Shown here in pieces: positions 132 to 14,429 of a stretch of DNA of 64,000 bases. This DNA is from Scenedesmus sp. PABB004 (lineage: Eukaryota), in contig JABVCE010000027.1 in NCBI GenBank assembly GCA_014905635.1, forward strand, positions 248,001-312,000, in the 5' to 3' direction. The notes under the pieces were generated by a model. It ran no database searches, was not told the DNA's origin, and saw only the letters and a list, made by a program, of their open reading frames with translations. Position 1 is the first letter of the stretch. Each line of letters opens with the position of its first letter. A program made the position numbers and the translations under genes.

Positions 132-708
132 GGAGCACAAGGGCCACCTCACGCGCGCCGACCTGGTCGAGGGCCTGCGCGTCGCGACGCCGTCCGCGTT
201 TGCCGCGCTGCACTCGAGCGGCAGCCTCGAGAGCGAGCTCGACGAGGAGTTTGCCGCGCTGGACGCCAACGGCGACGGCGTGGTCACGCTCGAAGAGTTC
301 CGCGCCGCGCTCTCGCTCGGGCCGGACGGCCTGCCGCAGCTCCTGGGGGGCGCGCCGCCGGCGGCGGCGCCCGCCGCGGCGGCAGCGGCGCGCCGGCGCG
401 CTCGCCGCTCGGGCCGCGCGGCGCGGCGCCGCCGGGCACGGACCAGGCGGGGCCGCCGAGCCGCGGCGCCGCCGCAGTGCACGCGTCGGCGCACTGAACG
501 CTCCCACGCCGAGAGGGCGGCGCGCACGCACGCGCGGCCTGCGGGGGGGGGGGGCGAAAGGGACCAGCGCGCATGCGCTGCGAACGCAACGAGATTTTGG
601 CACCGCAAACCCGCACCGCCACCCTTCGCCGACCTTGTTGCTCGCGAACGCCCACCCCCCTGTGTGCGACCTGCTGCGTGCCATTCACGCACGCCCGAGG
701 GCGCTTGA
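132..708 (+). CDS. EF-hand calcium-binding protein, 3' exon only (gene starts upstream of the window; possibly a CDPK-like C-terminus)
   Basis: Acceptor CAG ends at 131. The exon encodes a canonical EF-hand loop DANGDGVVTLEEF (262-300). The stop is uncertain: 708 in the ORF frame, or 497 if a base is missing near 380. Confidence 0.6.
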
Positions 709-1302
709 TTTCTCCCCCCTGAAAAACGCATTTCCGCCGCACTGCGGCCTGCGCGCGTGCCGAGCGGCGGCGTGCTGTTCGCGCAGCTGGTGACGCACGC
801 CCGGCGCGCGTGCAAAGTGTCCCGTTCGATCGCTCTCGTCGCCAGCTTTGCATCGGCCGGCCGAGCGGCGGCTGGGCGGCGCTTACGGACCGCCCCGCGG
901 CGGCGCCGCTTGGGCTTGGGCCTGCGCGCTGTCGCGCGCTGTCGCGCGGAGGCAGGTCACGGCAGGTCGCCGCCGCGCCTCTCACAGCCCCTCCCGACCC
1001 GCCCCGTCGTAATCAAGCGCACCGTGATCACGACCGCGGCCACAGAGACGCACGCAAGCACCTTCGCGTCTCGCTCGCCTCGCCGACCCGACCCTCCGCC
1101 GCGCGTGTCGTCCCCCAGCGGCCTAGAAGCAGAGCCGGCCTCGCCTGCGTGCGCGCCGAGCCGAAGCGCGCGCCGGGTCGCCAACTCACTCGGCGGAGCA
1201 GCAGCAGCAGCCCCCCCCCGCCGCGCAGAGCGCGCGCGAGGGGCGCCACTCCGTCGCTAGCTGCCTCCCGGAACCTCGCTTGTCGCCCGAGACCGGCGCC
1301 GC

Positions 1303-3877
1303 ATGAAGGCCAGCGGCGGCGGCGACGGACTCGGCCCGCAGCGCTGCTGCGAGCGCCGCCCGCCTCTGCGGTGGGCGCTCGGCGCAGCCGCGCTCGTGGC
1401 GTGCGTGGTGGGCGTGGCAGTGCTCATCGCCTACGCCGTGCGCCAGTCGCGCGCGGCGCCCGCGCTCGCCACCGGCGCCGGCAGCACCGCCGCCACCGCT
1501 GGCGCAGAGGCGGCCAGCCTCGGCGCGAGCCTCGGCGCCGGCCGTGGCGCCGCCAGCGGCGGCCGCTGGGCCGCGCTGCCGCCCCCCGACAGCGCCGCGG
1601 CGGACGCGCTGCTCGCCGACCCGGCGTCGCCCGAGTGGCTGCGGCAGCTCTACACGTACCAGCGGGACGCCCTGGTCATAACGCCCGCGCTGACCGAGGC
1701 CTTCCTGCAGCTGCTCGCCGAGCAGCTGCCCGCCGCGGCGCCCGCCGCGCCCGCAGCGCCCACAGCGGCGCCGGCGCGGCGCCCGCTCGCGGCGCGGCCG
1801 GGCGCGGCGGCGGCGGCGCCGCCGGCCCTCGACCTCGCGCCCTTTGTGCGCGTCGCTGCCGACGTGCTGGCCTACCTCCGCAGCGCGCGCAGCACGGCGC
1901 TGCTGCCGCTGCTGCGCGAGTTTGCCGCGAGCGGCGTGCTCGCCCTCGACGGCACCGACCCGGACGCCCTGCAGCAGGCGCGCGGCGCGCCCGCGCGCCG
2001 CCCCCGCCGCGCGCGGCCGTGGCGCGAGCGCGGCCGGCCGCCCCGGCTCGTCCCTCACGCTCGCCCCTCCTGCCCGCCTGCCCGCGCTCGCGCGCGCAGG
2101 AGGTGCACGCGCTGCTGGACGTGGGCGCGCTGAGCGCCTGGTTTGTCGCTCGGGCCGGCGCGGCGGCGGAGGCCGGCGCCGCCGTCGCCCTGTCGTCCGC
2201 CGCCGCGGGGGGCGGCGGCGCGCGGCGCCTGCGGCGGCTGGCCGGCGCCGCCGTGGCGCGCGAGCTGCGGCAGGGCTCGACCGAGGCGCTCACAGACCAG
2301 CTGCTCGGCCAGATGGGGAGCGCCCCCGACGACGTGGCGCCGTCCGCCGCGGCCGCGGCCGCGCCGCTGCCGCCGGCGGCGACGCGCCCGCGCAGCCCGG
2401 CGCGGCGCCCGCCGCGGCGCCCGGCGCGGCGCCCGGCGCGCCGGACGGCAGCCTCGTTGCCCAGGTGTGCGCGGCGACGCCATTCGCGCCGGGCGGGCTC
2501 GCCGGCGTGCTGCCGTTTGGCGTGGCCTGCCCCGCGGCGGCGGCGGCGCCGCCGCGCTTCTACGACGACGGCGGCGTCGCGTTCACGCCCGTGGTGAGCC
2601 GCCGCCAAGCCGCTCGTGCCGTTGTGCCGCGCCCGCCGCCGCGCCGCGCCCGCCGCCGCGCCGCGCCCGCCGCCGCGCCGCGACCGCCACCGCGCCCGCG
2701 CCCGCCGCTGCACCCGCCGCGCCTCCCCCGCCTCACGCGCCTCCCCCCCCAAATCAATTCCCCGCCCAGGTCATCCCGCTCGTCTTTCACGTCCTTCGCT
2801 TCGTCGTCGACGCGCCGGTGAACCGCTTCCTCGCCACCGACGCGCCGGCGCCGCCGCCGGGGCCGGCGCCGCGCATGGCGCTGCCGCCGCTGTTCAACGC
2901 GTCCGCGCCCGCGCGCCTGGTCGAGGTCGCGAACCGGCTGTTTGGCGGCACGGGCGTGCAGTTTACGCTCGGCGAGGTGCGGGCTGACCCGAGCATTCAT
3001 GCGTACCTGGGCCTTGACTCGCGCGAGGCCTGGCAGGCCTGCACCTACAACGAGCTCGCCGGCCCCGCGGCGGCGGGCCTCGACTGCCTGCGCCGCCTCG
3101 CCGCGTCGCCGGGGGTCGCCGAGACGGTGACGGGCGGCCGCGGCGTGAACGTGATCGTCTCGGGCAGCAAGGAGGTGCGCCGCCGGCGTTGGCTCTGCGT
3201 GCCTCGCGCGCCCGGCCCGGGGCTGGCGCCCGCTCCGCGGCGCCGACGCCTGCGCCAACGCCCGCCCCCGCGCCCGCGCGCCGCCGCAGGACCCGTGCTA
3301 CTGCGGCGCGGGCGCGTGCCGCACGATGACGCGCGGCCTGTGTGGCGCGCGGGGCCCCTGGTTCCTGCGTGACCGGTCGCCGGGGTGGAGCGAGGGCTCG
3401 CCGGCGGACAACTGGGTGCAGATCTCGTGGGACGTGCTCGACCCGGCGGGCCTCAACGCGCCGGCGCGCTGGGACGGCGGCGGCGCGGTGCTCGCGCACG
3501 AGCTCGGCCACTTCCTCGGCGTGCTTCACCCGCACGAGGGCGGCTGCGAGAACGGGCCGACCGTCGGCGACGGCGTCGCCGACACGCCCGGCAGCCTGCC
3601 GCTCTCGGCGTACGAGGCGCGGCTCGGGCCGTCGGCCGTCGCCGACCTCGCCGGCTGGTGCGCCGACCTGCGCACCGGCAGGGCGCCGCCGGCGGCGTCA
3701 CTCTCGCGCTACTCAAGCTGCCCCGGCAACCAGACCGACAGCGTGCTCAACGTGGAGTCGTACACACCCGACGCGTGCGCCATGATGCTCACGCCTGGCC
3801 AGGTGTCGCGCATGCAGTGGGCCATTGCCGCGTTCCGCCCCAAGCTCATGGCCGCGCACGCCGAGCCGGCGGGCTGA
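1303..3877 (+). CDS. Zinc metalloprotease, peptidase M43 (pappalysin/ulilysin-like) with N-terminal membrane anchor
   Basis: Hydrophobic WALGAAALVACVVGVAVLIAYAV segment; VIPLVFHVL; zinc motif HELGHFLGVLH (3497-3529); GDGVADTP; LTPGQVSRM. Introns 1978-2099 (GC-AG), ~2594-2769 and 3175-3289. Apparent -1 frameshift near 2370. Confidence 0.8.
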
Positions 3878-4219: not shown

Positions 4220-4224
4220 TTACA
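4220..4224 (-). promoter_or_regulatory. TGTAA polyadenylation signal of the CHD-like gene
   Basis: TTACA on +, about 30 nt past the TGA at 4253. TGTAA is the established chlorophyte poly(A) signal. Confidence 0.55.
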
Positions 4225-4252: not shown

Positions 4253-4749
4253 TCAGGGCGGCGCCGCGGGCGGCTGCTGCCGCCGCTGCTGCCCGGCCGC
4301 CGCCGCGAGCTGCGCCAGCAGAGCCTGCTGCTGCTGCAGCGTGAGGCCGCCCTGCTCCTGCCGCGCGCCGCTCGCCTGCCCCGCCTGGCCCGCCGCCGGC
4401 CGCGCGGCGACCGCCGCTTGCGCGGTAGCCGCGGCTGCAGCGGCCGCCGCCTCGCGCTGGCGTTGCCTCTCTCGCATCAGCAGCTGCTGCAGCTGCGCGG
4501 CCGAGCCCCCGCTGGCCGCCGGCGCCGGCGGCAGGGCTGCCGGCGCCGGCGGCTGGGCTGCCGGCGCCGGCGCCGCGCCGTCGGTGCGCTGCCGCTTCGC
4601 CGCGGCCTGCAGCTTGGCCTGCTGCTGCTGCACCAGCGCCAGCAGCGCGTGCTGGCTGGACAGCGGCTGCGCCGGCGGCTGCTCCTGCGTTTGTGGGGCC
4701 GGCGTGGCGCCGGCGCCGGCGCTCCCCGTCGGAGCTGCGGCTGGAAACG

Positions 4750-4800
<51 letters not shown>

Positions 4801-7800
4801 CCCCGGCCGCCACAGCCGCCTGCTGCCGCTGCGCCTCCACCGCCGCGCGCGCGCGCGCGGCCGCCTGCACCGCCGCCTCGCTGGGCCCTGCCGGCAGGCC
4901 CTGCTGCGCGGCGGCGGGCACGGCGCCGCTGGCCTGCCCGCCCGCGCCCGCCGCGGGCCGCCCGAGCATCACCTGCACCGCGCGGTGCAGCAGCTGCTGC
5001 GCCCGGCGCAGCGCGGCGGCCATGTTTGACGGCGCGGCCGACTGCTCGCGGTCAAAGCCGGCGCAGCGCTCCGCGCCGGGCAGCTCCTGCGGGTGCGCGC
5101 GGCGCGGGCGGCGCGGGGCGCGGGCCGCTCGGCCCGCCGCTCGCCGCCGCGCCGGCGGCGCGCGCTGGCCTTTGTGCTGCACGGCCGCGCCGGGCGGCTC
5201 AAACCAGCCCACCTGGATCAGCATGCACACCAGCGGGTGAGACAGCCCAAACAGGGCGAGCGCGTCGGCCGGCGGCGCGGCGGCCGCGCCGCGCAGCGCC
5301 GCGACCTGCGCAGCGGCGTCGGCGGGCGAGCGCGCAGCGTCAGCGCGCGGCGCCCGCGCCGCTGCCGCCGCCGCGGTCACTGCTGCTGCGGCCGCCGCCG
5401 CCGCCGCACGACAGCCCCCGCCGCCAGGCCGGCCCACCTGGCCCTGGATCTGCTGCCACAGCGCCTCGGGGCTGGCTGCGACCCACTGCTGCCCCGGGAA
5501 GTCGCTCGCGACGGCGACGAACGCCGGCCCCGCCGCGCCGGCGTCGGCGACCGCGCAAGTGTACGCCGCGTCGGCGCCCGGCGACGCGGCGCTCGCGTAG
5601 CGCGCGGCGACGGTGAGGCCGATCGGGTAGATGCGGCTGGCCGTGTGGAAGCCCGGCCGCGCCGGCTCGACCCTGCGCAGCGCGCGGCGCGGCGGGGTGG
5701 GCGCGGCGGCGCGGCAGGGTGGGCGCGGCGGCGCGGCGGGGTGGGCGCTGTGCGCGGCAGGGGGCTCGCGCGAAAGCGCTGCAGCACCCCGCGCCTTCCG
5801 AGCGCCAGCAGCGTGACGTCCTGCGACAGCGTGAGCGGCAGCGCCGGCCGCCCCCCGCCGTCGCGCTGCACGATCGGCAGGCACTCCAGCACTGCGACCT
5901 GCTCCGGCGACAGCGGCGGCGCGACCCCGGCGCCGATGGCGGCCGCCGCGGCGCCGCCAATGCGCAGCTGCGCGGCCGCCGCCGCCGCCTGCAGCTCCGC
6001 CGCGTCCGGCAGCCCCGCGGCGCCCGCGCTGCGCTTGGCCGCCGCGCGCGCGGACTTGCGCTGCGCCTGCACGGCCTGCGCCTGCACGGCCTGCGCAGCC
6101 TGCGCGGCCTGCGCGGCCTGCGCGGCCTGCGTCGGCTGCAGCAGGATGAGCTGCGGGCCCTGCGCCGGCATCATGCCCATGGCCATCAGCTGCTGCAGCT
6201 GCTGCAGCTGCCCCGGCTGAAGCACCACCACGCCCTGCGGCACCGCGGCGGCGCCACCGCGCCCGCCGGCGCGCCCGCCGCCGCGCCCGCCGCCGCCGCG
6301 GCCGCCGCCGCGGCCGCCGCCGCGCGGCTTGCCGCCGGCCGCGCCGCCCGGCGCCGCGCCGCCCGGCGCCGCGCCGCCCGGCGCCGCGCCGCCCGGCGGC
6401 GCGCTCAGCGCCTTGCGTGCCGCGGCGGCCAGGGCCTTGCAGCGCTTGCCAATGAGCTTCAGCTCGGGCGCCCAGTCTGGCAGCAGGCCCGCCTCGGCCG
6501 ACGCGCTCGGCTTGCGCGCCTTGGGCGCCGGCGCGGCCGCGGCGACGGCGGGGTCGGTCGCCGCGGCCTTGAGCGGCAGCGCCTCGTCCTGCGCGGCGCG
6601 GCGGCGGCGGGCGCCAGGCGGGGCGGCAGGTGAGCGCGCGCGCGGCGCAGGGCAGTGGGCGCGCGGCGGTGCACGACGCGCGCGCGGGCGGCGAACGGCG
6701 AGCAGCGGCGCCGCCCCTCCCTCAACCGACACACACCTCAAAGATGGCGCTCCAGCTGCCGAAGCCGTGCTTGAGCACGCCGGCCACGAGGCCTTCGTCC
6801 TGCGCCACGCCCCACCAGGCCGGCAGGTCGCGCGGCCGCGGCGCCGAGCGCAGCGCGTCGCCGAGCGACCCGCCGGTCGCCGACGCGCGCGCCGCCGCCG
6901 CCCGCAGCGTGGTGATGAGCTCGATGCGCTCCGCCAGGCGCGACGCCGTGCCCGCGGTCAGCACCTGCGGCGACGCGGCGGCGGCGGCGGTCGCGGTCGG
7001 GCCGCTGCGGACGGCGGGCAGGGTGCGGCGCCGGGCCGCGGCGGGTGGCGTGCGGCCAAGGGCGCACCGTGCCCTTGGGCGTGGGGACGGCCGCCGCCTC
7101 GCCGCCGCCGCTCGCGGCGCCGTCGGCCGGCGCGGCCTCGCCGGCCTCCCCGGCGGCGGGCGCGCCCCCGCCGCTCGTGGCGGGCGCGGGGCGGCGGCGG
7201 CGGCGGCCGCGGCCGCCGCCGCATCGCCGGGGCCCGGCATCGCCGTCGCGACGGCCGCCGCCGCGGCCTTGCGCTCCTCGGCGCGCTTGCGGCTGATGCA
7301 GACGACGCAGTCGCAGCTCGGGTTGTGCACGTTGCGCGGCTTCGGCGCGAGGCCGGCCGCCGCCGCGGCGCTTGCGGCAGCGGCAAACTGGGACATCTCG
7401 TCCAGCAGCTCCTTGAGCGTGGCGGTGAGCTCGGGCCTGCTCAGGCGCGAGAGGTGCTGCCCCTGGAGGCCCTCCGCGCCGGGCCAGGCGTCCCAGTCCA
7501 GCTCGGCGGCCGCGGCGGCCGCGGCGGCGGCGTCCGAGCCCGCCGCGGCGAGCGCCGCGGCGTCCAGGCCGAGCGGCGCGGGAGGGCCCCAGGCGTTGAC
7601 CAGGGACAGGAGCTCGTTGCGCGCGCGCTTGGTGACCTTGCCGGTGCCGGCCTGCGGGGCAGGCAGGCGGCCACGCGGCGGCGGCGGCGGCCGGCGCGGC
7701 GGGGCGGGGCGCGCGTGTGGGAGGCCGCCGCGCGGCGGCGCGGGGCCGGGCGGCCGACAGCTGCGAGAGCTGAGCGCCGCGCCCACGCGCCCGCCGATCC

Positions 7801-7934
7801 GACCGCTCCTCCGCCCTCGCCGCACCTCGTCGTCCATGCCCAGGGCCACGTGGTCGGCGTAGCGCCAGCTCGGCTTGTGCGCGCGCCGGCGCCCGCCGCC
7901 GCCGTCGGCGTCGCCGCCCGCGTCGCCGCCCGCG

Positions 7935-7967
<33 letters not shown>

Positions 7968-10900
7968 GCGTCGCCGATGAACTGCGCGGCCTCCTCCAGG
8001 ATGCGGGAGACCTCGCCGCCCCAGCCGCGGCCGCCGCCGCGGCCGCGGCCGCGCCCGCGCCCGCGGCCGCCGGCGCCCCAGCGCGGCAGCGTCGCCGGTG
8101 CCGCGCGGCCGCCGCCGGCCTCCCACCAGCCGCCGCCGCCGCCGTCGTCCTCGTCGTCGCCCTCCTCGCTGCCGCCGTCGCCGGGCCCTGCGTCCAGGTC
8201 GGCCAGGGCCAGCTCCTCGTCGTCTGAGAGGGCGCCCAGGTCGGTGATCAGGCCGTCCAGCGCGTCGTCGCCGCCCTCGCCCAGCGCCAGGCGCGGCGTG
8301 CCGGGCGCGCTGCCGCCGAGCGCGGCCGCGGCCGCGGCGGCCGCGTCCGCCGCGCAGCCCAGCACGCCGGCGCCGGGCTCGCCGGCCACGCCGAGCGTCC
8401 GCGCCGCGGCGGCGGCGCGCGCGGCGGAGGCCGCGTCGGGCGCGCCGGCGGCGGCGGCGCCGCCCGGGCCGCCGCCCTCCTGCGGCATCAGCAGGCCAAG
8501 CGCGTCCGCGAGCGCCACCGCCTGGCCCAGGAACTCACAGAGCCGCCGCACGCGCCGGCTCAGCGCGTCGGCGGGCGGCCACGCGCGGTCGCACGCGTCC
8601 GCGCAGCTCCCGGCGGCCGGCCGCTCGGCGCCGCCGTCCGGCGACGCGCGCCGGCTGCCGCCGTCGCCGTCAGACGCCGCCGAGCTGTCCCCCTGCCTGC
8701 TCGGCGCCGCAGGTGAGCCCGGCGCGTCGCCGCCGGCGGCGGGGCCCGGCGAGCCCGCGGCCGAGCCTGGCTCCGAGCGCACCGCCGCCTTGGCCACGTC
8801 CGGCGGCTTGGACTCAGGCGCGGGGTGGTAGCCCTGCGAGCGGGGAGCGCAGCAGCGACACGGCGGGGTGAGAGCGGTGCAGCGCCGCTGTGCCCCGCGC
8901 TGACGCTCCACGCCCGCTCTTCAACGCGGCGCGGCGCCGGCCGAGGGCGTCGAGAGACGCCCTACAAACTCAACCAGATCGCGAGCGCGACCGGCGCGGG
9001 TGCCATGCGGGCTGCAGCGAGGCTGTCCATCAGCAGGACATCTGCGGCCTGGTGCCTCGCGCCCGCGGTCCGCGCGCCCCTGATCAGCGGCGCTCCAGTG
9101 CTCCAACAGGCTCAGCAGTTGGCGCAGCAGCCGGACGCGTCGTGCGGCGTCGCACAGCGACCGCGCGGCGCAGCAGCAGCGCGCTGTGTCCGCGCGATGG
9201 CGGCGAGCGCGGCGGGGCCGGCGGCTGCTGGTGCGGCGGGCCGTGCACGCAGGACCTTCCCCGGCGTCCTGCCCCCGCCTGACGCGCTCCGCGCCGCCGC
9301 AGGTGCCGCGCCGGCGCCCGCGCCGCCCGCGCGGCTGGTGCTCGTGGTGGCCGTCGCGCTGCTCGACGCGCGCGGGCGCGTCCTGCTCGCGCAGCGCCCC
9401 GCCGGCAAGGCCATGGCGGGGCTGTGGGAGTTCCCCGGCGGCAAGGTGCGGGGCGGGCGCGGGCACGCGCGGCGCGAGCAACCCGCGAGTCCCCCGCGCG
9501 CGCAGCGGCGCGACCCCGCCGCCACGGGTGCCTGCCGCCGCCAGGTCGACCCGGGCGAGACCCCTGAGGCAGCGCTCGTGCGGGAGCTGGCAGAGGAGCT
9601 GAGCATAGAGGTCCGGCGCCTGCTGGGCTGGCGGCGTGGGCCGGGAGCGAGGGCTGCGGCGGCCAGGGCCGCCGCAGCGCGAGCGCCTGCTGCGCCGCCC
9701 GCCTGCTGCGGCACGCGCAGGTCGAGCCGCGCGACCTGCAGCCGCTCACGTTTGCGTCGCACAGCTACGATTCGTTCCACCTGCTGATGCCGCTGTATGG
9801 TGCGCGCCCTGCTGCCGCGCCCTGCTGCGCCGCGCCGCCCTGCCCGGCCGACGCGCCGCTGCCCCCCCCCCGCCCCCAGTCTGCCGGCGCTGGCGCGGCG
9901 AGCCGCACGGCGCCGAGGGCCAGGCGCTGGCGTGGGCGAGCGGCCGGGGCCTGGGCGACTTCGCGATGCCCGCAGCAGACCTGCCGCTGCTAGCGCCGGT
10001 CGTGGCGGCCATGGCGGCGAGCGGCGCCGGCGTGTGACCGTGACCCTCGGCAGCGTTACCGCCGACGCCGGCCGCGGGCGGCGCGCGCCACAGATGGCGG
10101 GGCGCGCCGCCGTCCGGCTGCTGCTGCTGCCTCTGCCCGCGCCGCTGCCGCTGCAGCGGCGGGCCGGCGGCCAGGGCCTGCTACTGTTGCTCCCGCGCCG
10201 CCGCGCGCCAGAGCAGCTCGCCCAGCGACGCGGTGTGCCGGCTCCCCAGCAGCGCCCGGAGCGGCGTCGCGCTCGGCGGCGGCGGCTGCAGCGCGGCGCG
10301 CAGCTCGTGGCAGGAGGCGCAGCCCCGCGGCGCGACGCCCTCGGCCGCCGCCGTACCGAACAGCTGGCGCTGCTTGTGCTGCGGGTGGCGCCCGGGGCGG
10401 GCCGGGGTGCAGCGGCAGCAGCAGCAGATCGGTCAGCCCGGGGGCCCCAGCGCGCGGTGGCGCCTGCCCGAGCGCTGCGCCGCCCGGGGTCGCACTTTGG
10501 GGTTCTTCTTGCAGTACACGAACAGCTTTCCCCGCCGCCTCGCGACGTAGCAGAACTCGCAGATGCGCTTCACGGCCGCGCGGACCTTCATCGCCTCCCC
10601 GCCGGCGCCCCCGGGGCGGCGGGCTAGGGCCAGGCGGGTGCGTCGGCCGGGCAAGCGCTGGCGCTGCTGAGGCTGCCCGGCGGCGCGCGGCGGTGGCGGC
10701 AGCGGCCGGCGGCAGCGATCGCGGGCTGTGCGTGTGTCGCGTGCAGCGAGAGGGGAGAGCGCTGATGGCGGCGGCGGGCGTGCGCCGTGCATGTGTGCGC
10801 GGCGCAACACAAACGAACGGCACACGCCGCGCTGAGCCCGAATGAACCGCGCGTGCCCTGAACCCAGCGCGCTGAACCCACCTGCAGCCCCACGTCGAGG

Positions 10901-12123
10901 CTCGCGTCGCGGCGCACGGCGTCGTAGTTTGCGAAGCCGTGGCGGTGCAGGCCCACCAGCAGCGCGACGTCCGCCTCGACGTCCCACCACGGCGCGGGCG
11001 CCGACTCGGGCGGCAGCGTCGCCACGAGCGCGCGCAGGATGCCGCCCACCGCCTCACTCGCCAGCAGCGCGGGCATGGCCGCCTGGAAGTCCGACACCGC
11101 CGCGAGCCGCCGCACGATGCCCTTGGCGGCGCCCTCGAGCTGCGCGGCGCGGCGCGGCTCGGCGCGGCGGCAGGGTCGGCGAGGGCCGGGCGCGCGCGCC
11201 CCGCCGCGCCGCGCCAGCCGCCGGGGCGTCGTGCTCTCACGTTGGCGTAGGGCGCGCCCGGCGTGGACACGAGCCCCCGCTCGGCGATGGGCGCCATGAG
11301 CCGCGCCAGCAGCGCGCGGTCGGCGCGCCCCGGCAGCAGGCCCTGCAGCTCGCCCAGCAGGTGCCACGCCGCGTCCTCGACGTCGCCCGGGCCGTGCGCA
11401 AAGCCGCGCAGCGAGCCCGACAGCGCGGCGTGGATCTGAGGTGCGGCGGCGGTGGCGGCGGCGGCAGCAGCGTGGGGCGTCACCGCGGCACGCAGTCGCT
11501 GCCGCCGCCGCCGCTGCCAGCCGCCGCCGCGCCGCACCTCCTTCCAGCGCCCCACGCCCCACGCGATGAGCTGGCGCTTCAGCGCGTCGCGCTCGGCCGC
11601 CCGCCACGGCAGCCGGCGGCGCTGCGCGGCGTGGCGCGCGGGCGGGCGCGGCGCGGCGCGGTGCGCGCGCGCGTACGGGGCCGCTCCGCCGCCGACGGCG
11701 GCGCTGCCGCGCCGGCGCGGCTGCCGCTGGCGCCGCGCGCACCACGTGGTGGCCGACCTTCGGCTTGGCCAGCTGCAGCCCCGCCACGCCCGCGACGACG
11801 CCCGCCGCCTCGAGCTCGTTGCGCCAGCGGTACTGGCCGCGGTGCACGTCCTTGAACAGCTGCTTGGCCTCGTCTCTGCGCGCGCCGCGCGGCGCAACTG
11901 ACGACTGCGGTCGCTGCTGCCCGGCGGGCCGCCGCCGCCCGGCGGGCCGCCGCGCACCTGTACACGCCCACGAGGCGGTTGATGCGCATCTGCCGCTCCG
12001 AGTCCCGCCCGCCCTTGCCGCCCTGCACGGCGGGCGCGCACTTCCCGTGGCGCGCTGCAGCAGCGGCCGCCGCCGCCGCCGCTGCTCGCGGCGCGGCCGC
12101 ACCTGCTGCACGTCCTGATCCAT
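4253..12123 (-). CDS. CHD6-9/Kismet-like C-terminal-region protein: two SANT/SLIDE-type units plus FYRN/FYRC domain and polyQ tail; no chromodomain or ATPase
   Basis: Motifs in the same order as the CHD7 C-terminus: LPWRAAERDALKRQLIAWGVGRWKE, PWWDVEADVALLVGLHRHGFANYDAVRRD, WPPADALSRRVRRL, TASRLAERIELITTLR, LPAWWGVAQDEGLVAGVLKHGFGSWSAIFE. FYR motifs: GFHTASRIYPIG...YTCAV...SPEALW...LFGLSHPLVCMLIQELPGAERC. A phase-0 intron at 8834-10881 joins the two halves. The start ATG at 12123 is tentative; probable frameshift near 7190. Confidence 0.7.
4751..4798 (-). repeat. (CAG)16 polyglutamine repeat in the CHD-like gene
   Basis: 16 perfect CTG units on +. Confidence 0.95.
9005..10037 (+). CDS. mutT: Nudix hydrolase, MutT/8-oxo-dGTP diphosphatase-like, probable organellar transit peptide
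   Basis: VLLAQRPAGKAMAGLWEFPGGK|VDPGETPEAALVRELAEEL (Nudix box), then PLTFASHSYDSFHLLMPLY|VCRRWRGEPHGAEGQALAW. Introns 9446-9544, 9611-9720 and 9800-9879. Confidence 0.9.
10181..10591 (-). CDS. MRPL36: Ribosomal protein bL36 (mitochondrial type, with C-terminal extension)
   Basis: MKVRAAVKRICEFCYVARRRGKLFVYCKKNPK|HKQRQ zinc-ribbon signature; GT-AG intron 10379-10495; TAG at 10181-10183. Confidence 0.9.
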
Positions 12124-12488
12124 CGATGCGGGCTGCACGGGTGCGGGGAACAGCCCCCAGGGCGCGGCCATGGGGCACCGGCGGCGCGCCGCGCCTCGCC
12201 GTGCGTGCGGGCGGCGCACGGTCCCGCCCGAGCCGCCGGCAAGCCGGGTAGCGGCGTCCGGCCAGACAGTTGTGATGCCGGCCGCGGCGTGCGCCCGGCA
12301 AATGACCGTCAAGCGCCTGACGACGGTTCAAGCGCACGCTCGCGCTCACCCGCGCCGCGCCGGTCCCCGCTGCCCCACTCTCCGCCACCGCCGCAATCCC
12401 GCCCCCGCTTCACGACCCGTGCGCTGCGCCTGGCCACTGGCACGCCCCGCGAGTGAGAGCAGCAGGCGCCGCCGCCGGCAAAACGTCG

Positions 12489-13877
12489 ATGTCCGGCGAC
12501 GCAGAGGCCCTGCTGGCCGGCTCGGACTCGGACGAGCACACCCATTACTCGCACCGCTCTCCCTGGCTTCGTGCGTTCGTCCTGGGTGAGGCGCCGCAGG
12601 CGCGCGCGCCGCACACGCCGGCAGCCGCCGCCGCACACGCCGCCGCCGCCGCCGCAGCACAGGCGCTGCCGCCGCCGAGCCGCCGCGCCGCCGCCGCACC
12701 GCCGCAGGCGCCAATGACGGCCTGGTGTCGGTGGCGTCGCTTATGCTGGGTGCGCCGCGCACGCCGCGCCGCGCCCGCCGGCCCGCACGGCCGCCGGCGA
12801 GCTGCTGACGCTGACGCCGCGCGCCGCCGCGACCGCCGCCGCCGCCGCAGGCGTCGGCGCGGGGTCGCCCGACCTGCGCATGATGCAGCTGTCGGGCGTG
12901 GCGGGCCTCGTCGCAGGCGGTGCGCCCCGCGGCGGCTGCTCGGCGCTCGCTCGGCGGCCGCACCCGCCGCGGCTCAGCCGCCCGGCCGCCGCCCCCCGCC
13001 CGCCGCCCGCCGCCCGCTGCCCGCCGTTGCGGCGCAGCGCTGAGCATGGCGTGCGGGGAGTACATCAGCGTCGCGAGCCAGCGCGACACCGAGGAGGCCG
13101 ACATTGAGAAGGAGCGCCAGGAGCAGCGCAAGGGCCCCGCGGCGCGCGCGAGGGAGCTGGACGAGCTCACGCAGATTTATGTTGACGTGAGGGAGAGAGG
13201 GAGCGAGGGAGGGAGGGAGGGAGGGAGGGGGGCAACGGGGGCGACGGGGGCGACGGGGGAGCGCGAGGGAGCGAGAGGGCCGCCGCCTGGCAGCGCCGCC
13301 GCCGACGTGCAGCCGGCGCCGCGCGCTCGCCTCACGCCGCGCCCGCCGCCGCGTCCGCCGCGCCCGCCGCCGCAGCGCGGCCTGAGCGCGCCGCTCGCGC
13401 GTCAGGTGGCGGAGGAGCTGACCGCGCGCGACGTGATCCGCGCGCACGCGCGCGACGAGCTCGGCGTCGACATGGACGCACTGGCAAACCCCCTGCAGGC
13501 GCGCGGGGGCGTGCCTGCGGGCGCGCGGGCCGGCGGCGGCGCCGGGGCAGCAGCACCGCGGGGCGGCGCCCGCGACGCGCGCGCGCGCGCCCGCCCGCCC
13601 GCCCGCCCGCGCGCAGGCGAGCGTGACGTCGGCGCTGGCGTTCAGCATCGGCGCCGCGGTGCCGCTCCTGGCGGGCGCATTTGTCGCCGACCCGCAGACG
13701 CGCATGGCCGCCGTCGCGGCGGCGGCGGTCGTGGCGCTCGCGCTGTTTGGCGCCGTCGGCGCCGGGCTCGGCGGCGCGTCGCTGCCGCGCGGCGCGCTGC
13801 GCGTGCTGCTGGGCGGCGGGCTGGCGATGGCGCTGACCTGGGGCGTGGGCGCTGTGTTCGGCGTCACGCCCGCGTGA
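12489..13877 (+). CDS. VIT1: VIT1/CCC1 family vacuolar iron/manganese transporter
   Basis: WLRAFVLG|ANDGLVSVASLMLG, ALSMACGEYISVASQRDTEEAD, AHARDELG, NPLQ|ASVTSALAFSIGAAVPLL; five introns. Confidence 0.92.
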
Positions 13878-14429
13878 TCCGGGCGGCAGCCGGGGCCTCG
13901 TCGCGGCGCCAGTGCGCTGCGGCCGGGTTTGGCGTCCGGGCGGCTGGGACTGGGTAGCTGCACTGCCGCAGGCTCGCTGCCGCACTGCGCGTGACGCGCT
14001 GTAGCACGTGACGTCGCAGAGGGAGGGGAATTTGTTCGGCCCCACTTTTTGGGGGAGCGGCGTGCCGTGCGCTCGCAGGCGCCGTGATTCTTGCGCGTGG
14101 GCGGCTCGGAGCGCGCGCTATCGGCATCGGCCGTGAAGCTTGAGTTGGTTTCACCGTCTCGTCTCGCGGGCCCGTGCAGGCCGCCGTTTCAGCAGCAAAT
14201 GAGCAGTCCAACGTTCCCCTCCTCACACACGCGCACGCCAATACCAGTGTCGCAGACGCCGACGCCCCAGCCCGCCCTACCTACACAGAGGGCGCTGCGC
14301 GCCGCGCTGCAGCGGGGGGCACGCGGCGCGCGCGGCGCCGCGGCCCACAGAGGGCGGCACCGCGGCGCCAGCGCGCGCGCGCGCGCGGCCTGTTTATTGT
14401 CTGCTGCAGACGCGGCGCGCTCAGCGCGC

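Follow-up and report, generated by a model that had tools for sequence, protein, structure and literature searches.

The 64 kb stretch of Scenedesmus sp. PABB004 DNA analysed here (the window; all positions are counted within it) carries on its minus strand two blocks of host coding sequence separated by a gap of 2048 nucleotides (nt). This gap (8834–10881) holds two complete small genes, one for a MutT/Nudix protein on the plus strand and one for the ribosomal protein bL36 on the minus strand, which is also the strand of the host. The gap is probably (at about 0.7, in our estimate) a single intron, belonging to one minus-strand gene that extends from 12171 to 4253 and encloses both genes. In relatives, the two host halves are collinear and a conserved domain runs continuously from one into the other; the splice from 10882 to 8833 is proposed on the basis of this homology. 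The genome of this alga is reported to comprise 39.8 Mb in 77 contigs with an N50 of 1.3 Mb, a GC content of 78.5%, 7,092 genes and 1.3% repeats (PMC12571836). The G+C content of the window is ~80%.

The gap and its two nested genes

On the minus strand, host exon 6 ends as GAC GTG GGG CTG CAG/GTGGGT (...DVGLQ; slashes mark exon edges here and below), with 10882 as its final base, and the downstream block opens as ctcgcag/GGC TAC CAC CCC GCG CCT GAG TCC AAG (GYHPAPESK), with 8833 as its first base. Both exon edges fall between codons (phase 0) and the edges of the gap are exact GT/AG sites with matching phases; the initial annotation of this locus had placed these boundaries, their phase and the length of the gap exactly to the base. 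The nested genes lie wholly within the gap, between two consecutive host-like exons, and the non-genic DNA beside them consists of segments of 171 nt (8834–9004), 143 nt (10038–10180) and 290 nt (10592–10881). A repeat search gave nothing beyond GC-rich low-complexity matches; neither a duplication nor an inverted repeat flanks the gap ends, and Rfam (E ≤ 0.1) and tRNA scans of 8300–11400 gave no match. The measured host introns are 80, 82, 136, 102 and 101 nt (exons 1–6) and 148 nt (6736–6589). All ten other introns measured at the locus, in the host, L36 and MutT genes, fall between 80 and 148 nt, which bears out the contrast in intron size (against 2048 nt) to which the initial annotation had drawn attention.

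The plus-strand nested gene is, by its sequence, a member of the MutT/Nudix family and is predicted to encode a hydrolase. Its exons (9005–9445, 9545–9610, 9721–9799 and 9880–10037, with the ATG at 9005 and the stop codon at 10035–10037) are separated by introns of 99, 110 and 80 nt and join into an in-frame coding sequence (CDS) of 744 nt with a single terminal stop. The protein matches the Pfam family NUDIX (PF00293) with 47.9 bits (cut-off 21.1) and its top solved relative is 3hhj, named 'Mutator mutT protein' (E = 7e-14). The Nudix box (GX5EX7REUXEEXGU), as read by eye, is GKVDPGETPEAALVRELAEELSI, which runs across exons 1 and 2 and has S in place of the last G.

The minus-strand nested gene consists of two exons (10591–10496, with the ATG at 10591, and 10378–10181) that flank an intron of 117 nt (10495–10379). 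Its product scores 54.7 bits against the Pfam family Ribosomal_L36 (PF00444; cut-off 26.1). The top solved relative, the 103-residue bL36m chain of 6xyw, is matched over residues 1–32, and the two proteins are alike in having an N-terminal L36 fold followed by a C-terminal extension. The zinc-ribbon match above the cut-off and the plant-type C-terminal extension place the predicted protein in the L36 family, with the mitochondrial type assigned by likeness. The L36 intron is itself exon-like, with a length that is a multiple of three and a high G+C content at third codon positions (GC3), and one in-frame TGA alone betrays it as non-coding. Open frames and GC3 are therefore weak guides to exons in a genome of 80% GC.

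The two nested genes are convergent, with their stop codons 143 nt apart. Each has an ATG, a stop codon, an in-frame spliced CDS and a family match above the Pfam cut-off, in agreement with the initial annotation, which had described an antisense MutT gene (9005–10037) and a sense L36 gene (10591–10181) with an intron of its own. Judged by reading frame and family match, they are complete, independent coding units, and their promoters and 3′ ends are presumably also their own.

Proposed continuity of the host across the gap

An exhaustive search for relatives with the downstream block as query gave 48 proteins. In ten of these (P0002, P0008, P0019, P0020, P0027, P0028, P0032, P0034, P0036 and P0037), exon 4, exon 5, exon 6, the helix with the WP motif (the WP helix; AWPPADALSRRVRRLCEFLGQAVAL, at ~8584–8498 in the downstream block) and the second helix-turn-helix (HTH) all match one polypeptide in the same order. 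The exon-6 match is followed by the WP helix after 35–114 residues in these ten relatives, compared with ~89 residues in the window if the gap is spliced. The same layout is found in metagenome contigs: L001 contains one unbroken open reading frame (ORF) of 939 residues (338–3157, +) with the SANT-like part, WWDGTCDFFLLYGVYRHGFGNF, ~100 residues further on YAWPRPEDLTDRVRRV, and the second HTH, and L003 (569–2953, +) is laid out as L001, with no intron. These contigs come from a second metagenome scan that gave seven loci, of which only L001, L002 and L003 were informative; the relatives found in it are distant and intronless, and none of the loci has a match to L36 or MutT with E below 0.08. 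A first metagenome scan had given 239 pattern matches, none of which was confirmed.

Eleven homologue segments were combined into a family profile, and the proposed junction was scored against it. When exon 6 is joined to the exon that begins at 8833 (the GYH exon), the product matches this profile as one domain with 82.4 bits over positions 1–144, compared with 58.0 bits for exon 6 alone and 23.0 bits for the GYH exon alone (positions 107–144). Other continuations of exon 6 score 58.3 bits (the annotated tail of the deposited model, described below), 56.3 bits (read-through of the donor) and 59.1 bits (L36 exon 2).

The downstream frame is open from 8920 (the preceding stop is at 8921–8923) and its first in-frame ATG is at 8488. 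This ATG is preceded by the conserved GYH, by the codons of the WP helix and by the region of clear GC3 periodicity, so that the downstream block is unable to start by itself in frame. The G+C fractions at the three codon positions are 0.81/0.72/0.94 in 8833–8490, and 0.83/0.50/0.98 in exon 6. Among the five close relatives (P0006, P0010, P0011, P0013 and P0043), all except P0006 have Q/GYH at the same point. This is the footprint of a read-through CAG acceptor, and the position of the intron is thus shared with close relatives, although the fact that these sequences start at the GYH exon is not evidence of a long intron there.

The gap also divides a conserved domain. Exon 6 matches the HTH family PF23588 over profile positions 21–52 of 83 with 24.8 bits (cut-off 27), the match being clipped by the exon end. 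The second HTH (6737–6850), which forms the end of the downstream block (..WWGVAQDEGLVAGVLKHGFGSWSAIFE/GTGTGT), matches the same family over positions 19–44 with 29.2 bits, above the cut-off, and is likewise clipped by its exon end. Pfam searches with the continuations alone (8450–8833 and 6391–6588) gave no PF23588 match at E ≤ 10. By hhalign, module 1 (HTH to WP helix) is equivalent to module 2 (HTH to last helix) with 98.3% probability (E = 1e-14). The WP helix closes a Chd1-type SLIDE-like domain, the first part of which sits in exon 6. The initial annotation had proposed that a W-P...L..R..RL helix completes the motif WW..D..LL.G...HG, and this is borne out by Pro327, Leu332 and Arg335 of the WP helix, which are invariant in all 12 aligned family members. 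Homologues, profile and hhalign likewise uphold its broader claim, namely that the two blocks share the architecture of one protein family with a conserved domain split by the gap.

If the gap is an intron, transcription would start at a host promoter near 12200 and proceed through exon 6, the same-strand L36 gene, the convergent MutT gene and the GYH exon to the stop codon at 4253. RNA polymerase II would pass the promoter, splice sites and 3′-end signals of L36 and would cross the opposing MutT unit, and the spliceosome would pair the donor at 10882 with the acceptor at 8834 and remove 10881–8834 as a single intron. L36 and MutT may each be driven by the short stretch of the intron that lies upstream of it, as their complete ORFs suggest. 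The expected host product would contain two SANT/SLIDE-like DNA-binding modules and a FYR domain. The features of the locus are collected in Table 1.

Table 1. Features of the host gene, the nested genes and the rival exons (positions in the window)
Feature	Positions	Strand	Basis
Host exon 1, ATG at 12171	12103..12171	-	exact mapping of the deposited 296-residue protein P0049
Host exon 2 (bounds possibly 1–2 nt off, split codon)	11957..12022	-	P0049 mapping
Host exon 3	11758..11874	-	P0049 mapping
Host exon 4, SANT-like RRRLPWRAAERDALKRQLIAWGVGRWKE	11538..11621	-	P0049 mapping; blastp to 7 long homologues, E 5e-9 to 6e-5
Host exon 5	11241..11435	-	P0049 mapping and homologues
Host exon 6, ends in the first part of a Chd1-type HTH, WWDVEADVALLVGLHRHGFANYDAVRRDASL (~10986–10891)	10882..11139	-	donor CAG/GTGGGT
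Proposed host intron 6, GT...CAG, with both nested genes	8834..10881	-	splice sites read in the sequence; junction proposed from homology
Nested gene 1, mitochondrial-type ribosomal protein bL36m, 97 residues	10181..10591	- (host strand)	ORF, Pfam, solved relative
Nested gene 2, MutT/Nudix hydrolase (predicted), 247 residues, 4 exons	9005..10037	+ (antisense to host)	ORF, Pfam, solved relatives
Host downstream block, one open frame, starts GYHPAPESK	6737..8833	-	sequence read, homologues, Pfam
Host 3′ part, exon from 6588 (DEALPLK..LPDWAPELKLIGKRCKAL), FYRN ~5668–5543, FYRC from ~5530	4253..6588	-	Pfam, ORF
Rival terminal exon of the deposited annotation, 33-residue tail	10624..10725	-	acceptor AG 10727–10726, stop 10626–10624
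Candidate mini first exon of a separate downstream gene, ATG 9030 or 9006, donor CCG/GTCGCG	8992..9030	-	ATG enumeration

Alternative readings and the deposited gene model

Several observations weigh against a single host gene with a 2 kb intron. The gap is ~14–25 times as long as the local intron norm, and the genome is reported to be compact (39.8 Mb, 1.3% repeats; PMC12571836). The sense-nested L36 gene would carry its own 3′-end signals into the host pre-mRNA. The collinear relatives are distant (22–50% identity), the close relatives are exon-sized fragments that are silent on the upstream part, and L001 and L003 lack an intron at this point, which implies that the nesting is not ancient. 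Two properties of the deposited annotation point the same way: the GC3 of its terminal exon is 0.91, which is not clearly non-coding, and a reading in which that exon is used and a separate gene starts downstream is self-consistent, with introns of ordinary size (156 and 158 nt).

The deposited protein (P0049, 'hypothetical protein HT031_005917', 296 residues, span 10624–12171 on the minus strand) joins the 10882 donor to 10725 across the 156 nt intron and ends in the tail PAIAAAGRCRHRR...APAWP. The acceptor at 10726 with its 33-residue tail is a rival that the initial annotation had not foreseen. The tail has no likeness to any homologue and adds 0.3 bits to the score against the family profile. 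From the deposited stop codon to the L36 ATG there are 32 nt, which is too short for a 3′ untranslated region, a poly(A) site and the L36 promoter, so that transcripts of exon 6 must enter the L36 unit.

The deposited model would be correct under gene fission, a reading with two independent genes and no nesting. The upstream gene would then be the 296-residue model, and the downstream gene would start with a mini first exon and be driven by a promoter of its own, arranged head-to-head with MutT. We regard this as unlikely. Of the eight minus-strand ATGs in the gap, only those at 9030 and 9006 could begin a plausible mini-exon of phase 0 that is not in the L36 frame, with the 158 nt intron leading to 8833. 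Such an ATG...GT exon does exist and GTC donors are found elsewhere at the locus, but ten of its 13 codons end in G or C by hand count, which amounts to no coding bias, and it runs antisense across the MutT start codon. Fission would separate the HTH of the conserved SLIDE-like domain from the helix that closes it, while both parts are still conserved, and it would leave the upstream gene with a tail that has no homologue and a stop codon next to L36. All ten homologues with both parts, as well as the ORFs of L001 and L003, are single polypeptides. An annotated protein corresponding to the downstream gene was also sought: the second HTH as query against database proteins of 150–2000 residues found only a distant transcriptome CHD protein (P0050), and a 703-residue block as query against proteins of 1232–3515 residues found no match. 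The lack of an annotated downstream protein fits a gene predictor that is unable to find a start for this block.

A single gene could also have two outputs, a full-length protein through the 2048 nt intron and, where the host transcript is caught before or inside the sense L36 unit, a SANT-only protein of ~296–330 residues through the acceptor at 10726 or 10379, with a 3′ end at the L36 site. The acceptors at 10726 and 10379 are both in frame with the 10882 donor, the former was chosen by the annotation pipeline, and there is a human precedent, since nested genes and intronic L1 elements are described as subjecting host transcripts, ahead of the nested unit, to 'forced exonization' and to cryptic polyadenylation (PMC3192792). 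Even so, we consider two outputs improbable: neither tail is conserved, the shorter product would stop halfway through a domain, and frame compatibility alone has a 1-in-3 chance. The same holds for the switch at L36 exon 2 raised by the initial annotation, of which the phase survives (the host donor and the acceptor of the exon from 10378 are both phase 0) and the functional part finds no support in the profile scores (59.1 versus 58.0 bits for exon 6 alone). A regulatory form of this idea seems to us somewhat less probable again. Here the L36 unit would gate the host: passage of polymerase and spliceosome beyond the promoter, acceptors and 3′-end site of L36 would decide between the full two-module chromatin reader with FYR and a truncated SANT-only product made with the 10726 acceptor or that of L36 exon 2. 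If this is true, the amount of a chromatin factor would depend on how active a mitoribosomal gene and a convergent MutT gene are.

The exceptional size of the intron for this locus might instead indicate an assembly artefact, with the L36–MutT segment misplaced, or a decaying host gene broken by an insertion. Both are very unlikely in our view, given that the two halves keep open frames, GC3 values of 0.94–0.98 and the invariant residues of the family, that the gap has exact GT/AG edges with matched phases, and that no repeats or duplications flank it; the contiguity reported for the assembly (77 contigs, N50 1.3 Mb; PMC12571836) also speaks against an artefact. With a single host gene as the preferred reading, the deposited 296-residue model is an artefact of gene prediction or else a truncated by-product. 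It most likely represents the 5′ quarter of a protein of ~2000 residues, the remainder of which is apparently unannotated.

The host protein family and known parallels

Taken as one gene, the host encodes a helicase-less relative of the C-terminal region of CHD proteins, with two tandem Chd1-like SANT/SLIDE-type modules, FYRN and a candidate FYRC. By analogy with Chd1, it may act in chromatin or DNA binding. The comparison with CHD7-type proteins made in the initial annotation is correct for the C-terminal SANT/SLIDE helical modules, since PF23588 matches twice, in exon 6 just under the cut-off, and the model of a homologue superposes on Chd1 and CHD4. It does not extend to an enzyme: a CHD7-type (CHD6-9) remodeller was rejected, as the SNF2 ATPase and chromodomains are missing upstream and the annotated start is at 12171. 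Among the 80 minus-strand ORFs of at least 90 residues in 12000–34000, none matches any Pfam family at E ≤ 1e-4, SNF2 and chromo included.

Long relatives contain HTH_CHD1 twice, HTH_CHD6-9 and FYRN/FYRC. Four proteins (P0034, P0036, P0042 and P0050) add Chromo, SNF2 and Helicase_C to these modules and FYRN/FYRC, which makes them true CHD enzymes, and six (P0002, P0019, P0020, P0027, P0028 and P0048) are helicase-less and resemble the host in the window. The window's own frame gave no match to HTH_CHD6-9 (PF23078) at E ≤ 1. The FYRN match in the window scores 25.4 bits (cut-off 24) and that of FYRC, on the unspliced frame, 17.8 bits, below the cut-off of 21. The ORFs of L001 and L003 (65% GC) end without FYRN/FYRC, and the FYR tail is thus not universal in the family.

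The AlphaFold model of the homologue P0002 served as the structure query, with a mean predicted local distance difference test score of 69.6 that rises to ~90 at the WP helix. Module 2 of this model (residues 361–566) superposes on the Chd1 DNA-binding domain (9gd3) with a Z score of 14.4 and a root-mean-square deviation of 3.2 over 173 aligned residues, and on human CHD4 SANT-SLIDE with a Z score of 12.3. Module 1 (residues 113–354) gave weak rows only (Z 3–5) in the fold search, where the list was filled by module 2 and FYR, and its fold assignment therefore depends on hhalign. The family profile finds chains of the Chd1 DNA-binding domain (E = 8e-9) and the TBRG1 FYR domain (E = 2e-42) by sequence. 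The host family carries two modules of the kind seen in the Chd1 DNA-binding domain (SANT-SLIDE; 2xb0, 3ted and 5j70), in CHD4 SANT-SLIDE (8d4y) and in PF23588 (HTH_CHD1_Hrp3) and PF23078. In contrast to CHD enzymes, the host in the window is without a chromo or SNF2 part. It has FYRN and a candidate FYRC in common with TBRG1 (2wzo) and the KMT2 FYRN/FYRC proteins and differs from them in combining these with CHD-type SANT/SLIDE modules and in having no catalytic domain.

The 2.1 kb open frame of the downstream block (8833–6737) is probably not a single exon, with at least one in-frame intron following ...GMDDE/GTGCGG near 7826. The ORFs of relatives diverge right past ...RYADHV, where the window has GAG/GTGCGG, with a CAG ahead of AGTGKVTKRARNELL. 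This divergence and the donor-like and acceptor-like sites suggest an intron of ~170 nt within 7650–7826 that is open by chance. The host stop codon is at 4255–4253. The C-terminal low-complexity region includes a run of 18 glutamines (a CAG repeat) within 4700–4800 on the minus strand, and long Ala/Gly/Arg-rich tracts across the host gene swamp word-based protein searches. Upstream, a gene of the VIT family (vacuolar iron transporter-like; 12884–13957, +) lies head-to-head with the host 5′ end; it matches Pfam VIT1 with 64.4 and 56.0 bits on two frames and hence contains one intron or more. In chlorophytes, the usual poly(A) signal is TGTAA. In the 64 kb it occurs at three minus-strand sites (4224, 46114 and 60198) and at none on the plus strand, with ~2.9 per strand expected, and the site at 4224 is 29 nt past the host stop codon. 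A count this close to chance makes TGTAA unusable for placing 3′ ends here, and most genes of the window must use another poly(A) signal.

Genes nested in introns, sense or antisense, are familiar from animals. Intron 27b of NF1 holds OMG, EVI2A and EVI2B, and what we take to be the nearest textbook parallel to the present gap is intron 22 of human F8, with F8A (antisense) and F8B (sense). As in F8 and NF1, complete genes with their own starts and stops would lie in one intron through which the host is transcribed, and F8 intron 22 shares the combination of one sense and one antisense gene. The algal case differs in that its intron would span just 2 kb, with little space left beside the genes, in that the genome is compact, with 78.5% GC and typical introns of ~100 nt, and in that the nested genes use no host exons, as far as can be read from the sequence. 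About 63% of human nested genes are reported to be antisense (PMC3192792), which makes the sense-nested L36 gene the less common orientation. Among the papers listed by a thin literature search, none deals with gene nesting in green algae, from which absence is not to be concluded. Polycistronic loci, on the other hand, have reportedly been described in green algae by Gallaher et al. in 2021. Under the deposited model the locus looks superficially bicistronic, since the L36 ORF starts 32 nt past the upstream stop codon. It differs from such loci in its upstream ORF of 296 residues, whose many internal ATGs disfavour leaky scanning, and in that homology extends the upstream ORF beyond L36.

We conclude that the locus is a new instance of a known nesting arrangement in an unusual genome, together with a likely annotation error. 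Current understanding is not overturned by it, and the public gene model would be corrected. The analysis also documents a little-described family of eukaryotic proteins with two Chd1-like SANT/SLIDE modules and FYRN/FYRC, with or without the CHD motor. For the alga itself, the locus is a small, clean case (2 kb, with three genes in both orientations) in which to study how nested genes are transcribed and spliced in a compact, extremely GC-rich genome; one of the nested genes brings splice signals and 3′-end signals on the same strand as the host.

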